Shown: positions 39,199 to 59,921, counted from the first letter of the stretch. The stretch is 64,000 bases of DNA from Anaerolineae bacterium (GCA_016926255.1 JAFGOY010000013.1:2139-66138), one strand, 5' to 3'. The notes: generated by a model not told the origin, from the sequence alone. Program-made: numbers and translations.

Positions 39199-40163
39199 GA
39201 AACCTGCTCCTCAACCGGGGTCAGGATCGACTCGATATATTCGATAGAGGCTTTACGCCCGGACTGTATCCGCCGCCGCTGTTTTAGCAGGCCGGGGAGC
39301 GCGATCAGCCCGGCGAGCATGCCGCGCAGCCGGGCACGGGCTGCTTCGCCGCGCCACGCCCTGATCGCATCGACCGCCTGCCTGATCTGCAATCGCATGA
39401 TCTGCGGCAGGTATTTTCGAAGCAGCGGGCCGGGGTAGTTCTTTGCGATCACCCGGAGCGTGTTGCGCCCGGCGTAGTAGCTGGCGGTCTTCCCGCCGCC
39501 GGTCGCCGAGAGGTGATGATATACCACTGCCTTTGGCGCGTAGAAACACTGCCATCCGGCCAACTGCGCCCGCCAGCCGAGATCGACATCTTCCATCAGG
39601 AAGAAGAAGCCATCGTCGAGCAGGTCAATCTCGTCAAGCATGGCGCGCCGATAAGCCGCCGATCCGCCGCAGGCGCTGAACACAGGCTGCTCCTGCCGGA
39701 ATTCAGGGCCGTCTTTCTGCCAGACTCCCCGGTTCCCGGCTTCCCCGTTGACCCGGTAAAAATCTCCGGCGTTGTGGAGCGTGTCACGTTGATCGTAGAG
39801 CAGCATCTTGCTGGCTATCGATCCGGCTTCGGGATGGCGATCAAATGCAGCCAGCACCTGCTCGATCCAGTCCGGCTCGACTTCGGTATCGTTGTTCAAC
39901 AGGATCACAATTGGAGCGTGAGCGGCTTCCATCCCGACGTTGCAGGCACCGGTGAATCCCCGGTTCTCCGGCAGTTCGATCAGGCTGACTTCAGGATACT
40001 GATCGCGGATCAACGCCTGCGATCCATCGGTCGAGGCGTTGTCGACTATGATCACCTCGACCGGTTCGACCGTTTGCTTTCCGAGCGAATCAAGGCAGGG
40101 GACGAGGAACTTCAACCCGTTCCAGTTGGGGATAATCACCGAGGCGAGCGGATCGACAGGCAT
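39195..40163 (-). CDS. GT2-family glycosyltransferase (rhamnosyltransferase-like)
   Basis: SVIIPNWNGLKFLVPCLDSLGKQT, IIVDNASTDGS, LLNNDTEV and GGSAAYRR. Confidence 0.8.
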   Translation of the reverse strand: MPVDPLASVIIPNWNGLKFLVPCLDSLGKQTVEPVEVIIVDNASTDGSQALIRDQYPEVSLIELPENRGFTGACNVGMEAAHAPIVILLNNDTEVEPDWIEQVLAAFDRHPEAGSIASKMLLYDQRDTLHNAGDFYRVNGEAGNRGVWQKDGPEFRQEQPVFSACGGSAAYRRAMLDEIDLLDDGFFFLMEDVDLGWRAQLAGWQCFYAPKAVVYHHLSATGGGKTASYYAGRNTLRVIAKNYPGPLLRKYLPQIMRLQIRQAVDAIRAWRGEAARARLRGMLAGLIALPGLLKQRRRIQSGRKASIEYIESILTPVEEQVS

Positions 40164-54230: not shown

Positions 54231-55541
54231 TTGACCAAGAAGAAAATCACAGAGCCGAGGCGCGTCCACCTGGCGTTCATCGGCTGCCGGTTGAACCAGG
54301 CCGAGATCGACCGGATGGCGCGGCAGTTCATGGCACGCGGCTATACGCTGGCAGACGGCGAGCACAATGCCGACCTGGTGGTGATCAACACCTGCGCGGT
54401 AACCCACGAAGCGGAACGGAAAAGCAGGCAGGCGATCCGGCGGGCAGGCCGGGAAAACCCGGGGGCGGAGATCATCGTGACGGGGTGCTACGCGCACCTG
54501 TCGCCTGACGAGATGGCCCGGCTCCCGAACGTCAGCCATGTTTTCGACAACGATGAAAAGGCCCGGCTGGTCGACGAGCTCACCGGTAAAGCGTTGGACG
54601 ACATCGCGCCGCTACCGCCCGGCACGCTGGGGCACACGCGGGCATTCGTCAAGGTGCAGGACGGCTGTGACAATCACTGCACGTACTGCGTGACGCGGAT
54701 CGCGCGGGGATCGGGGCAGAGTCGACCGGCCAGCGAGATCACACAAGAAATCCGGCGGCTGACCGACTCAGGCTACAACGAAGTGGTGCTGACAGGGGTC
54801 AATCTGGGATCGTACGGGCGGGATTGGGGGCAGGATCGCGGGCTGGAATCGCTGGTGCAGGCGATACTGGCCGAGACTCCGATCAAACGGCTGCGGCTGT
54901 CGTCGCTCGAACCGTGGGAGATCGACGCGGCATTCTTTGAACTGTGGAAAAATCCAAGACTGTGCCCGCATCTGCACCTGCCGCTGCAATCGGGGAGCGA
55001 CGGGACGCTGCAGCGAATGGGGCGGCAGTACACCGTCGAGGCGTACAAGGGGCTGATCGAAGCGGCGCGGCAGAGCATCCCGGATGTGTCGATCACGAGT
55101 GATGTGATCGTGGGGTTTCCGGGCGAAACGGACGAGACGTTCGAGGAAACAGCGCGGACGGTCGAGGCGATAGGATTTTCGCGGCTGCACGTGTTCCCAT
55201 ACTCAGAGAGAGAAGGAACGGCAGCCGCGCGGCTGCCGGGTCAGGTCGATCATGCGACAAAGACAGCACGGAAAGCGCGGCTGCTGGAACTCTCCGAACG
55301 GCAGTGGCGGGCCTATCAGGAGCAGCACATCGGGCGGACGTTCGACGTATTATGGGAATCTTCGAAGGGGGAAACGGCGGACGGGTCGATCTGGTCGGGG
55401 CTGACGGGGAATATGCTGCGGGTGATCGCGGTGTCGGCGGAAGAGCTGCGGAACACGATCAGGGCGGCGCGGCTTGAGGGAATCGGGAAGCGGGGGATTC
55501 GGGCGGTGGTGGAGTCATCCCGGCTGAAGTCACCGGGCTAA
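54231..55541 (+). CDS. mtaB: MiaB-like radical-SAM methylthiotransferase (MtaB type)
   Basis: An N-terminal MTTase domain (FIGCRLNQAEID, VINTCAVT), the radical-SAM CDNHCTYC motif, and a C-terminal TRAM-like region. TTG start. Confidence 0.8.
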   Translation: MTKKKITEPRRVHLAFIGCRLNQAEIDRMARQFMARGYTLADGEHNADLVVINTCAVTHEAERKSRQAIRRAGRENPGAEIIVTGCYAHLSPDEMARLPNVSHVFDNDEKARLVDELTGKALDDIAPLPPGTLGHTRAFVKVQDGCDNHCTYCVTRIARGSGQSRPASEITQEIRRLTDSGYNEVVLTGVNLGSYGRDWGQDRGLESLVQAILAETPIKRLRLSSLEPWEIDAAFFELWKNPRLCPHLHLPLQSGSDGTLQRMGRQYTVEAYKGLIEAARQSIPDVSITSDVIVGFPGETDETFEETARTVEAIGFSRLHVFPYSEREGTAAARLPGQVDHATKTARKARLLELSERQWRAYQEQHIGRTFDVLWESSKGETADGSIWSGLTGNMLRVIAVSAEELRNTIRAARLEGIGKRGIRAVVESSRLKSPG

Positions 55542-56473: not shown

Positions 56474-57139
56474 TTACTTCGACAGGACTACACGAGCATC
56501 CTCGTCCCACTCGATGAGGCGTTCGGGATAGACATTCATCACGGTGGTCTGCATGTAGGGGGTGGTCACGACCGTGCCGGTGCGGTAGATATGCACATGA
56601 CCGTGCAGCATGAGGCGCGGCTTGAAAAGGCGCATCAGGGTTAGAAAGCTGTTAAAACCCCTATGAGGCAGGTCGCTGCCATCGTGGATTCCGTGAGCCG
56701 GGGAATGGGCGACGAGAATATCGAGGTAGCGGCCATACCTGATCTTATTCAGCATCAGCGAGGGAAGCAGTCGAAAAATCCGCTGACGCATCTCAACCTC
56801 GGAGTATTGATGGGCAGCACCGGGCGTATAGCGCATCGAACCGCCCAGCCCGGCCAGGATCGTATTACCCACGCGAATCGATCTCCCTTCAAGGGAAACG
56901 CAGCCGCGAGGCTCAGTGACCGTGATGCCGCTCGACATCACCTGGGGCTTATCGTGATTGCCATGCACGTAGTAGAGATCGGCGGGAAGCATGGTAACGA
57001 CATATTCGAGGTAGTAGTAGGGCAGATCGCCGCAGCCGATCACCAGATCGACACCAGCGTATTTCTGGCAGATGTTCGGTGAATAGACGCCTGCGACAAC
57101 ACTGTCACTGAGAGCCAGGATTTTCATTCGCGGGGACAC
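56474..57139 (-). CDS. Metallophosphoesterase (calcineurin-like)
   Basis: MKILALSDS, GCGDL, VHGNHD, AHSP and HGHVH. The start may be ATG 57127 rather than GTG 57139. Confidence 0.8.
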   Translation of the reverse strand: MSPRMKILALSDSVVAGVYSPNICQKYAGVDLVIGCGDLPYYYLEYVVTMLPADLYYVHGNHDKPQVMSSGITVTEPRGCVSLEGRSIRVGNTILAGLGGSMRYTPGAAHQYSEVEMRQRIFRLLPSLMLNKIRYGRYLDILVAHSPAHGIHDGSDLPHRGFNSFLTLMRLFKPRLMLHGHVHIYRTGTVVTTPYMQTTVMNVYPERLIEWDEDARVVLSK

Positions 57140-57271
57140 TTGTCTCGAAAAGAACTACATTATGCTGCGCTAAATCCACTACCGCTGAGTATAGCACAGT
57201 CAGCGCGGCGGACGTACACACGACGGGCACAGCGCGCTGTGCCCGTACGTCTCATCATGGATAGCACCCGA

Positions 57272-57303
57272 CAAAAAAGGCTGGAGGAAATTCCCCCAGC
57301 CTT
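57272..57303 (-). terminator. Intrinsic terminator after the SAM synthetase gene
   Basis: The minus strand reads AAGGCTGGGGG-aattt-CCTCCAGCCTT followed by TTTTTGT, 19 nt after the stop codon. Confidence 0.75.
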
Positions 57304-57321: not shown

Positions 57322-58512
57322 CTAGTACATGGTGACTTCCTGGTTCAGCAGCACTTCGCGCAGGCCGACCATGTCGCTCAGCCGGTAATCGAGCACGGCG
57401 GTGACTTCGGCTCTCACCGCGTCGGTCAAATCGCCGCTGATCGTCGTGACATTGGCCGTCGCCACCAGGGGCTGGTCGAGCGGCTTACCGATCTGGCTGA
57501 GGATATAGACCTCGGCCTGCTTGACGTCGGCGACCTGATCGACGATGTCCCTGGCGACCAGGAAAGACAGGACGTTGTAGAGCTTTCCGACATGGCTGAT
57601 CGGGTTCTTGCCCGCTGCCGCTTCAAGCGAGGCGCAGCGGAAAGGCGCAATGACACCCGTCACACGGTTGCCACGCCCGACGGAACCGTCGTCACCCATC
57701 TCGGCGCTGGTGCCGGTGAGGGTCAGGTAGACGGCACCCGCGTCCACATCGTCAGCCGTGTTGACATCGACACGGGCTTTCATAGAGTTGAGGTTGTCGA
57801 CAAAGGACTGCACGGCATGCCGCACCGCGTCTTTGGCCTCGACGTACTCCTGAGCGTCCCTGATCTCGCGGGCCATGAAGGGGATCGCGCAGGTAAGGAC
57901 GGTCTGACCGGCAACGCGGGCACCCATCACCTTGACGTCTTCGCCGACGGGGAACTGGTTGACCAGATCGAGATTGATGTAGTTGCAGGTTTCGTACACG
58001 GACTCTTCGAGGTGCGAATACGGCCAGTGCGCGCAGCCAAAGCTGGTATCGTTGGCGGTGACCTCATTCACGGCGTGCATCAGCTCACTTGAGCCGTGCC
58101 CGGCGTAGCTGTCGATCACACAATGCTGGTCGGGATCGAGGTGCTTCATCGTTTCACGGATGTGGGCCTTCGCCGCGTTGATAGCAATGGCGTCCATCGG
58201 GATTTTAGTGCCATTGGGAGCAACCGGGGTGCCGCGCCCGGCGATCTGGATGCGGATCGGCTTGAGCAGTTCGGCATAGCCGTACCTGACATCGACATCA
58301 CCTGCAACTAACTGGACTTTATCGAAATTGTGATGGAGCGGCGCACCCAGGTTCTTATGACACCATTTGGTGTATTCGACTGAAATGCGCTCGGCGATTC
58401 CATCGCACAGACTGTCCGGATGGCCGATGCCCTTGCGCTCGACGATCTCAACCGGGCGATCCTCGATCCAGGTTCCAATTGCCTTGGTTACTACGATATT
58501 ACGGTCGGTCAT
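57322..58512 (-). CDS. mat: Archaeal-type S-adenosylmethionine synthetase (methionine adenosyltransferase)
   Basis: VEIVERKGIGHPDSLCDGIAERIS...LHHNFDKVQLVAG matches the N-terminus of archaeal MAT (e.g. the M. jannaschii enzyme: EIVERKGLGHPDSICDG...HHNTD). It is not the bacterial MetK fold family. 396 aa, AGGAGG as SD. Confidence 0.85.
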   Translation of the reverse strand: MTDRNIVVTKAIGTWIEDRPVEIVERKGIGHPDSLCDGIAERISVEYTKWCHKNLGAPLHHNFDKVQLVAGDVDVRYGYAELLKPIRIQIAGRGTPVAPNGTKIPMDAIAINAAKAHIRETMKHLDPDQHCVIDSYAGHGSSELMHAVNEVTANDTSFGCAHWPYSHLEESVYETCNYINLDLVNQFPVGEDVKVMGARVAGQTVLTCAIPFMAREIRDAQEYVEAKDAVRHAVQSFVDNLNSMKARVDVNTADDVDAGAVYLTLTGTSAEMGDDGSVGRGNRVTGVIAPFRCASLEAAAGKNPISHVGKLYNVLSFLVARDIVDQVADVKQAEVYILSQIGKPLDQPLVATANVTTISGDLTDAVRAEVTAVLDYRLSDMVGLREVLLNQEVTMY

Positions 58513-58540
58513 GATGATTACTTATTCCTCCTGCTGCGGT

Positions 58541-58580
58541 AAAAAGGAAAACGCCTCTCTCAATGCGAGAAGAGGCGCGC
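58541..58580 (-). terminator. Riboswitch expression-platform terminator
   Basis: The minus strand reads GCGCCTC(T)TCTC-gcatt-GAGAGAGGCG followed by TTTTCCTTTTT. Its 5' arm CTCTTCTC is complementary to GAGAAGAG of the aptamer P1 3' strand, giving an antiterminator alternative. Confidence 0.75.
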
Positions 58581-58609
58581 AACAGGACTGATTCCAGTAT
58601 TTGGCGTCT

Positions 58610-58742
58610 CTTCTCATCTTCCAAAGTCCTACAGAGAGTCACTCTGACGGAATTGGCACCATTCCCCAGGCCAGCGTAGCTGACCATCAGGCGGTTGCCG
58701 AGGCTTCAAAGGGCCGGTCCCTCCACCTCTCAGGATGAGAAG
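58610..58742 (-). promoter_or_regulatory. SAM-I (S-box) riboswitch aptamer
   Basis: The minus strand reads CUUCUCAUCCUGAGAGGUGGAGGGACCGGCCCUUUGAAGCCUCGGCAACC...GGUGCCAAUUCC...GGAAGAUGAGAAG. The P1 helix is CUUCUCAUC/GAUGAGAAG, and the conserved core blocks GAGGGA, GCCC..UGAAGCC..GGCAACC and GGUGCCAAUUCC are all present. Confidence 0.9.
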
Positions 58743-58787
58743 CTGTCTTTCCAATTAACCTGATCTGATATTTTTAACGTGTGCCGT

Positions 58788-58816
58788 AGTCTACCGTGCC
58801 GGGTAAGGACTGTCAA
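58788..58816 (-). promoter_or_regulatory. Sigma70-type promoter of the riboswitch-mat transcript
   Basis: The minus strand has TTGACA (58816..58811), a 17-nt spacer, then TAGACT (58793..58788), about 40 nt upstream of the aptamer. Confidence 0.5.
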
Positions 58817-59009
58817 CAGGCGCTAATCCGACGAAATAGCAACCATTTCAGTCGTCTGCCCGGCAAATTCGCTATCACTATTGATCACTGTTATAGTCGT
58901 ATATGCCAAACGAACACCCCACAAGACGTGGGGTTCTGGTGAAAAATCGACCGGACTTCAACCTGATTTCTCCCTACCCCGGCGCACCAGATAGAAAGAA
59001 CAGCCACTT

Positions 59010-59921
59010 ATGACAACCTGGAATGAAGTATCACTCCAGGTGGACGGAGAAGGCGCGGAAGCAGTTGCCGACGTGCTGCGCCGGTATGTCCACCAGGGAA
59101 TAGCCATCGAGCAGTTATTTCCAGGCGAAGCCTGGGAAGACGAACCACGCCCGGCGGGGCCGCTGGTAGTGCGCGGCTATTTCCCCGCCGACGCAAACAC
59201 GGAGACGGTCAAGGAGCAGATCGAGCAGGCATTGTATTACATGCGACTGCTCTACCCAATCCCAAAGCCGACATTCAAGACAATCGAAGAAGAGGACTGG
59301 GCCGACGCCTGGAAGCAGCATTATCACCCGGTGCGGATCGGGCTGCGCATATTGATCAAACCGGCATGGCTTGAAGCAGATGTGCGAGAGAACGATATCG
59401 TCATCGAGATGGACCCCGGGATGGCATTCGGGACGGGGACTCACCCGACCACGCAGCTCTGCCTGGAAGCGTGCGAACGATTTATCAAACCCGGCATGAC
59501 AGTCGCCGACCTGGGCACAGGATCGGGCATACTGGCAATCGCCGCCGCCCGGCTGGGAGCCAGGGTGGTGGTGGCGGTCGACGTCGACGAGAAGGCGGTA
59601 CAGGTCGCGCAGGAAAACGCCGCCCGGAACGGGGTCAGCGAACAGATCAGGGTGAGCAAAGGCTCCGTCAAGGAACTGCTGGCAGCAGGCAAACAGTTCG
59701 AGATCGGGCTGGCGAACCTGACGGCAAAAATCATCCAGACGGTGATACCCGATGGCCTGGAAAAGATTGTCATGCCCGGTGGACGGTTCATCTTCTCAGG
59801 CGTCATCGACGAACAACAGGACGAGGTTTGCAGCGCGCTCGAACAGATCGGGCTGATGGTCAGCGACATCCAACAGCGCGGCGACTGGCTGCTGATCACT
59901 ACCGAAAGGCAGACAACTTGA
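59010..59921 (+). CDS. prmA: Ribosomal protein L11 methyltransferase
   Basis: MTTWNEVSLQV...EAVADVL, IEMDPGMAFGTGTHPTTQLCLEA and DLGTGSGILAIAAA. Confidence 0.85.
   Translation: MTTWNEVSLQVDGEGAEAVADVLRRYVHQGIAIEQLFPGEAWEDEPRPAGPLVVRGYFPADANTETVKEQIEQALYYMRLLYPIPKPTFKTIEEEDWADAWKQHYHPVRIGLRILIKPAWLEADVRENDIVIEMDPGMAFGTGTHPTTQLCLEACERFIKPGMTVADLGTGSGILAIAAARLGARVVVAVDVDEKAVQVAQENAARNGVSEQIRVSKGSVKELLAAGKQFEIGLANLTAKIIQTVIPDGLEKIVMPGGRFIFSGVIDEQQDEVCSALEQIGLMVSDIQQRGDWLLITTERQTT

Follow-up and report, generated by a model that had tools for sequence, protein, structure and literature searches.

A SAM-I riboswitch leader precedes an archaeal-type SAM synthetase gene in an Anaerolineae bacterium and its relatives

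Results

A riboswitch leader and the gene behind it

The locus described here lies in a 64,000-nucleotide stretch of DNA from an Anaerolineae bacterium (GCA_016926255.1, JAFGOY010000013.1:2139-66138), called the window below, with positions counted from its first letter. It consists of a riboswitch leader and the gene that follows it, both on the minus strand. The leader contains an S-adenosylmethionine (SAM) aptamer of the SAM-I or S-box class (58741..58611), followed by an intrinsic terminator (58578..58541). The gene (58512..57322, with its ATG at 58512 and its stop codon at 57322) encodes an archaeal-type methionine adenosyltransferase (MAT, or SAM synthetase) of 396 residues, a member of family PF01941. 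Upstream of the aptamer, a sigma-70-type promoter (58816..58788, minus strand) is made up of a TTGACA -35 box (58816-58811), a 17-nucleotide spacer and a TAGACT -10 box (58793-58788). It was recovered by a consensus scan with 10 of 12 matching positions and had already been picked out in a sequence-only reading of the stretch; transcription would start near 58781, about 7 nucleotides after the -10 box. A further terminator follows the stop codon on the same strand (57303..57265), with a 12-bp stem at 57303-57277 and then UUUUGU (-19.2 kcal/mol), which indicates that the MAT unit is monocistronic.

The aptamer matches Rfam model RF00162 at 83.9 bits, well above the gathering score of 44.4 (E=2.3e-18), across the whole model (positions 1-108 of 108), and no other Rfam hit in the window attains gathering score. 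Its core nucleotides include the tandem A-U/U-A pairs of P1, the GAG of J1/2, the P2 kink-turn (GGAGGGA...UGAAG), GGCAACC and GGUGCCAAUUCC, while P3 and P4 carry apical extensions. The P1 helix, whose coordinates were checked base by base, joins a 5' strand UUCUCAUC (58741-58734) to a 3' strand GAUGAGAA (58618-58611). The sequence-only reading had seen every conserved block of the S-box aptamer here, and a single base in J1/2, considered further below, is where the window deviates.

The gene behind the leader belongs to the archaeal MAT family

The protein aligns with the PF01941 (AdoMet_Synthase) profile at 442.2 bits against a cutoff of 27, with residues 4-391 covering profile positions 1-394 of 395. 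Its top solved relatives are the archaeal MATs 4l4q, 6s81, 7p83 and 4hpv, all matched end to end (E from 2e-98 to 2e-91); for 4l4q (E=2.2e-98), query residues 4-395 align with chain residues 6-404. When the same open reading frame was compared with the bacterial MetK domains (PF00438, PF02772 and PF02773), there was no M or C domain, and PF00438 scored 17.3 bits, below its cutoff of 33.1, over residues 29-43, which correspond to the shared GHPD motif. The family assignment made from the DNA alone, archaeal-type MAT and not bacterial metK, is therefore correct. A companion statement, that the window contains no bacterial-type metK, agrees with a tblastn search of the 64 kb using an E. coli MetK probe (best E 0.06), a result that says little about the rest of the genome.

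The pairing of leader and gene across a bacterial clade

A homologue scan over one genome per GTDB species yielded 46 bacterial loci, followed by archaeal loci. The bacterial loci derive from Anaerolineae, Thermoflexales and genomes labelled 'Chloroflexota', and their MATs are 59-95% identical to that of the window; the archaeal proteins from the same scan are 41-45% identical to it. Of the 45 bacterial loci with upstream sequence, 44 have RF00162 directly in front of the gene in the same orientation, and the tally is 45/45 when locus L022 is counted. L022 had been a candidate riboswitch-free exception and was ruled out as such, because a permissive scan located an aptamer that the contig end truncates at model position 41, leaving its 3' two-thirds. 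None of the 15 archaeal loci scanned, a sample restricted to high-scoring euryarchaeal ones, has RF00162 upstream of its MAT gene.

The SAM-I core nucleotides seen in the window are present across the clade, the J1/2 position before GAG being the single exception. An RNAalifold alignment of 30 clade members recovered the complete four-way junction (P1, P2a/b, P3 and P4), with compensatory changes on both sides of seven pairs distributed over P1, P2 and P3. These changes indicate that the structure is under selection within the clade. The length of the aptamer match varies from 99 to 218 nucleotides among loci, and the core is kept despite insertions in P3 and P4; the apex of P3 (up to ~83 nucleotides between landmarks) or of P4 (up to ~97) is enlarged in L004, L009, L026, L029, L034 and L035.

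The promoter is similarly widespread. In 40 of 44 loci, TTGACA-16/17-TAnnnT is matched at 9 or more of its 12 positions, at a steady distance of 24-62 nucleotides from the aptamer on its upstream side. In L040-L043, from Roseilinea-like or Thermoflexales genomes, the aptamer and terminator are kept and the TTGACA -35 box conserved elsewhere is missing; the closest approach to a promoter there matches 6-8/12 positions, and three of the four have a TATAGT box just 8 nucleotides from the aptamer. A riboswitch-led MAT gene was also seen in a metagenome-assembled genome labelled 'Actinomycetes' (L079, 3001-4190). It is 69% identical to the window's, and its frameshifted reading frame of 1190 nucleotides shows six stops in naive translation, for which long-read error, misbinning or a pseudogene are possible explanations.

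The expression platform supports two mutually exclusive predicted folds

Downstream of the aptamer, the terminator comprises a 5' arm GCGCCUCUUCUC (58578-58567), a GCAUU loop, a 3' arm GAGAGAGGCGU (58561-58551) and a U-tract UUUUCCUUUUU (58551-58541). The hairpin (58578-58551) has a predicted energy of -16.6 kcal/mol, and U makes up 7 of the 9 bases after it and 9 of the 11 bases of the U-tract; a consensus scan flags a terminator-like site at 58572..58554. The 5' strand of the antiterminator, GAGAAGAGACGC (58615-58604), overlaps P1: the five bases that end the P1 3' strand also belong to it. Its complement is GCGCCUCUUCUC, the segment that doubles as the terminator 5' arm. The P1 3' strand thus competes for the terminator 5' arm, the arrangement expected of an S-box expression platform. 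The sequence-only reading had described this competition as GAGAAGAG pairing with CUCUUCUC, and both structures are present and exclude one another.

Folding predictions place the two states close together. The antiterminator is the minimum free energy (MFE) structure of the isolated expression platform. For the full leader (~58781 to 58510) the MFE fold, at -95.7 kcal/mol, contains P1 (8/8 pairs), the terminator (7/8) and a helix at the Shine-Dalgarno (SD) sequence (8/8), and enforcing the antiterminator gives -90.7 kcal/mol, a cost of 5 kcal/mol. In a transcript cut at the terminator loop, which represents the moment of decision for the polymerase, the ligand-free MFE fold has P1 open and 11 antiterminator pairs, and the nascent ligand-free transcript favours the antiterminator in 29 of 36 loci. 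The platform is also conserved: a hairpin and U-run follow the aptamer in 45/45 loci under loose criteria, the P1 3' strand is able to pair with the terminator 5' arm in 43/45, and 98% of cells are pairable in the antiterminator of 9 relatives.

A predicted Shine-Dalgarno helix in the window's subclade

The third helix of the full-leader fold is formed by an anti-SD segment, CCUGUUGC (58586-58579), which lies directly 5' of the terminator, and the ribosome-binding region (58538..58527). The partner strand CGCAGCAGG (58538-58530) overlaps the SD sequence AGGAGG (58532-58527), and the helix encloses the terminator. The OFF fold covers three of the six SD bases, those of the 5' half, and under the enforced antiterminator all six are unpaired. 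In the subclade (the window and L001-L009), 8 of 10 sequences have an anti-SD:SD duplex that outperforms 96% or more of its shuffled versions; the same holds for 0 of 16 more distant loci. In an alignment of nine sequences the helix is 81% paired, and three of its pairs change on both sides, for example from U-A to C-G. These predicted folds suggest, rather than demonstrate, that a second, translational OFF layer probably operates in the window's subclade.

Discussion

Proposed mechanism

We consider it likely, at roughly 85%, that the leader is a SAM-I OFF-switch that acts by transcription attenuation, probably reinforced in this subclade by SD sequestration, on a vertically inherited archaeal-type SAM synthetase. 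From the elements described above we infer SAM binding and termination as follows. When SAM is abundant, it would occupy the aptamer and lock P1 (58741-58734 with 58618-58611). With its 3' strand held in P1, the hairpin at 58578-58551 and its U-tract would form, and RNA polymerase would stop short of the gene. Under SAM limitation, GAGAAGAGACGC would pair with GCGCCUCUUCUC as soon as the latter is transcribed, consuming the terminator 5' arm and allowing the enzyme to be made. In the subclade, the CCUGUUGC:CGCAGCAGG helix of the OFF fold would in addition hide half of the SD sequence, and mRNAs that had been read through or had refolded may be poorly translated too.

Observations against the proposal and alternative explanations

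Several observations weigh against this mechanism, and they concern the antiterminator, the position of the SD sequence, the relative importance of termination and the aptamer itself. When the P1 5' strand is blocked in the complete leader, the equilibrium fold still contains the terminator and no antiterminator. Because the antiterminator appears upon co-transcriptional truncation and not at equilibrium, the switch is predicted to be kinetic; the model has it act during transcription, and folding energies are not proof of this. Kinetic behaviour is typical of characterised S-box leaders. Covariation in the antiterminator is likewise absent, with 0 pairs changed on both sides among the 9 relatives. 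This is explained by a strand too conserved to show any, and the support for the antiterminator comes from pairability, conservation and shuffle tests instead. The SD-to-ATG spacing, at 14 nucleotides, is long.

The U-tracts of the close relatives L002, L005, L007 and L009 are weak, and in parts of the clade the main output may thus be something other than termination. Together with an SD helix confined to the subclade, these poor tracts point to dual or shifted (translational) control. Taken further, they would suit an alternative in which control is mainly translational, the 'terminator' hairpin acts chiefly as the centre of a structure that hides the SD, and SAM blocks ribosome binding and not transcription elongation. 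The outer helix that masks half of the SD in the MFE fold, the release of the SD once the antiterminator forms, the restriction of the helix to the subclade (8/10 against 0/16) and the three pairs that change on both sides all fit this alternative. Nevertheless, the window itself has a good U-tract directly after a stable hairpin, and most of the clade has textbook terminators without any SD helix. The helix leaves half of the SD sequence uncovered, and its covariation is not above that of a shuffle control (n=9 sequences). Control exerted mainly at translation is therefore unlikely, and attenuation with a probable translational layer remains the preferred mechanism.

The deviating J1/2 base is the remaining difficulty. 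At 58732 (minus strand) the window reads CCUGAG, with a U where the Rfam consensus has an A. The A is kept in 41 of 45 clade members, and the U occurs only in the window and in L001, a relative that is 95% identical. Such a change could weaken or inactivate the aptamer in this genome and leave the gene constitutively expressed. The aptamer nevertheless scores 83.9 bits with the U in place, and the remaining conserved positions are intact. That L001 shares the U and preserves the whole platform argues for continued selection and makes loss of aptamer function very improbable.

A different objection concerns the enzyme, which might be a divergent paralogue that has lost SAM synthesis and acts, for example, on another nucleotide or amino-acid substrate, leaving the riboswitch in charge of a side reaction. 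All five NCBIfam PRK04439 equivalogs score below their cutoffs (the best, NF003364, at 431.9 against 553 bits), and thirteen alignment columns separate the bacterial clade from the archaea. Matching PF01941 and falling outside all the curated archaeal equivalog groups, the protein belongs to a bacterial subfamily of its own. Against a loss of SAM synthesis, full-length matches to PF01941 and to solved MATs are accompanied by invariant catalytic and substrate-binding motifs. Across 76 aligned sequences, 44 of them bacterial and 32 archaeal, 47 columns are invariant and a further 57 reach at least 95% conservation. The conserved motifs include GHPD, NDTSFG, GEDVKVMG, GTSAEMGDDGSVGRGNR and AAGKNPxSHVGKxYN. 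Among the invariant residues are G30-H31-P32-D33, N154-D155-T156-S157-G159, G190/D192/K194 and R280/R283, and conservation is 95% or higher over the stretches T266-N282 and K302-N313. This conservation argues that MAT activity has probably been retained. Control by a SAM sensor is also what would be expected of a SAM-producing enzyme, and the NCBI cluster to which the protein belongs, which includes a 100% identical GenBank entry from an Anaerolineae metagenome-assembled genome, is named methionine adenosyltransferase. There is thus only a slight chance that the riboswitch governs a side reaction.

The last alternative, recent acquisition of the gene from an archaeon so that it landed behind a pre-existing riboswitch, takes its appeal from an enzyme family that is overwhelmingly archaeal, and is extremely improbable given the distance to the closest archaeal relatives (41-45% identity), the monophyly and long stem of the bacterial sequences, the presence of the riboswitch-gene pair in 45/45 loci that span 59-95% identity, and a base composition that fits the neighbouring genes.

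An ancestral pairing

The phylogeny behind this judgement is a neighbour-joining tree of the same 76 sequences, for which archaeal loci were drawn only from high-scoring euryarchaeal ones and which has no root relative to deep archaeal diversity. In it the bacterial MATs form one clade on a long stem. Mean identity is 69% among the bacterial MATs and 44% between bacterial and archaeal ones, with a maximum of 50%. The gene's GC content (0.597) and its GC content at third codon positions (0.766) match those of its neighbours. Euryarchaeal and crenarchaeal structures score alike against the protein (333 to 310 bits), so no donor lineage is evident. The occurrence of the leader-gene pair throughout the clade, the monophyly and the matching composition indicate that the pairing is ancestral to the lineage rather than the product of recent transfer. 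On this sequence evidence, leader and gene appear to have descended as a unit from the ancestor of the Anaerolineae/Thermoflexales clade. The sequence-only reading had called the enzyme either horizontally acquired or of ancient archaeal type; the ancient option fits, and recent horizontal acquisition does not.

Genomic surroundings

The genes around the MAT unit are ordinary bacterial ones, encoding PrmA, IF-1, ribosomal proteins S21 and S1, and a MiaB-like radical SAM enzyme. Two of these products use SAM and flank the MAT gene, namely the MiaB-like radical SAM methylthiotransferase (54231-55541, plus strand) and PrmA (59010-59921, plus strand). Among related loci, PrmA is adjacent to the MAT gene in L001 only and the MiaB-like enzyme in none, so the flanking SAM-using enzymes are probably a coincidence. 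Between the divergent prmA and MAT promoters lies a GC-rich palindrome, ACCCCACGTCTTGTGGGGT (58916-58934), with a T-rich tail on the minus strand, where there is no upstream minus-strand gene in need of termination.

The MAT gene is followed, on its own strand, by a gene for a calcineurin-like metallophosphoesterase (56474-57139, minus strand; PF00149, with no specific NCBIfam family). A metallophosphoesterase gene takes this position in 15 of the 46 bacterial loci, distant ones included (L002-L009, L023, L025, L028, L029, L031, L037 and L079). Its membership of the MAT unit was considered and rejected, because the distance is variable (a gap of ~150 to 1,270 nucleotides) and often includes a terminator, which is present in the gap in roughly half of the cases (57303-57277 in the window).

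Two observations concern tRNA genes. In L023, L028, L029, L031, L032, L034 and L038, though not in the window, a tRNA gene on the opposite strand lies ~100-270 nucleotides upstream of the aptamer. Elsewhere in the window, ARAGORN calls a 92-nucleotide tRNA-Gly(TCC) at 40049-40140 (plus strand); Rfam detects no tRNA in that interval, whether the limit is the gathering score or E<=0.1, and the call is probably a false positive.

Comparison with known systems

The closest functional parallel is the metK S-box leader of the Bacillus subtilis type. It shares the RF00162 aptamer, the OFF logic and the competition among the P1 3' strand, antiterminator and terminator, and the function it controls is also SAM synthesis (EC 2.5.1.6). 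The window differs in its enzyme, which is PF01941 instead of MetK (PF00438/PF02772/PF02773), in its host, a member of the Chloroflexota class Anaerolineae, and in the extra SD-sequestering helix of its subclade. This is the canonical metK S-box feedback loop applied to a different enzyme family, and no new mechanism is involved.

Within the phylum, Chloroflexus and Herpetosiphon have a SAM riboswitch before an mtnA-...-adk-ahcY-metK operon (Sun et al. 2013, PMC3766115 supplement), so such logic already exists there. Phylum and riboswitch class are the same, and a SAM synthetase is among the controlled genes. That gene, however, is listed as metK (by name only) at the end of a SAM-recycling operon, whereas the window's gene is monocistronic and of archaeal type. 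In Geobacter and Desulfuromonas, an archaeal-type SAM synthase was described as a second isozyme alongside classical MetK, and the S-boxes reported there precede only metIC and metX (Rodionov et al. 2004, PMC545781). These are likewise S-box-using bacteria with an archaeal-type MAT; in the window, the MAT gene itself carries the S-box.

Other SAM-sensing metK leaders include SAM/SAH in Rhodobacterales and SAM-Chlorobi (Weinberg et al. 2010, PMC2864571), which exert the same feedback on SAM synthetase through other aptamer classes, on genes named metK. On the protein side, the archaeal MATs of M. jannaschii, P. furiosus, T. kodakarensis and S. solfataricus (7p83, 6s81, 4l4q, 4hpv) share the family and the catalytic motifs, but are only ~42-47% identical to the window MAT, and the bacterial clade is separate from them. 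A 2022 study on the divergence of MATs (PMC8727953) regards PF01941 enzymes as an archaeal trait; Chloroflexi and riboswitches go unmentioned there. No description of a SAM-I riboswitch before an archaeal-type MAT was found in the full-text literature, a search whose coverage excludes most subscription journals. Presumably, Rfam and protein-family annotation pipelines would already label both elements in deposited records.

Implications

The loci described here make up a large bacterial subfamily of 'archaeal' MATs, monophyletic and outside every NCBIfam equivalog. It is of use for annotating Chloroflexota metagenome-assembled genomes and as a bacterial ingroup in studies of MAT evolution, and its compact leader may combine termination with SD sequestration. 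More tentatively, and at somewhat less than even odds in our estimate, Anaerolineae and Thermoflexales might as whole groups have lost the near-universal bacterial MetK and rely solely on the archaeal-type MAT, whose gene would have kept or captured the phylum's ancestral SAM-I leader; in Chloroflexia this leader still precedes an operon containing metK. If true, a core enzyme would have been replaced across a whole class while its regulation was retained, which would offer a natural setting in which to study the move of a riboswitch onto a replacement gene. Riboswitch logic here follows function and not gene ancestry: the SAM sensor stays tied to SAM synthesis even with an enzyme from a family regarded as typically archaeal.

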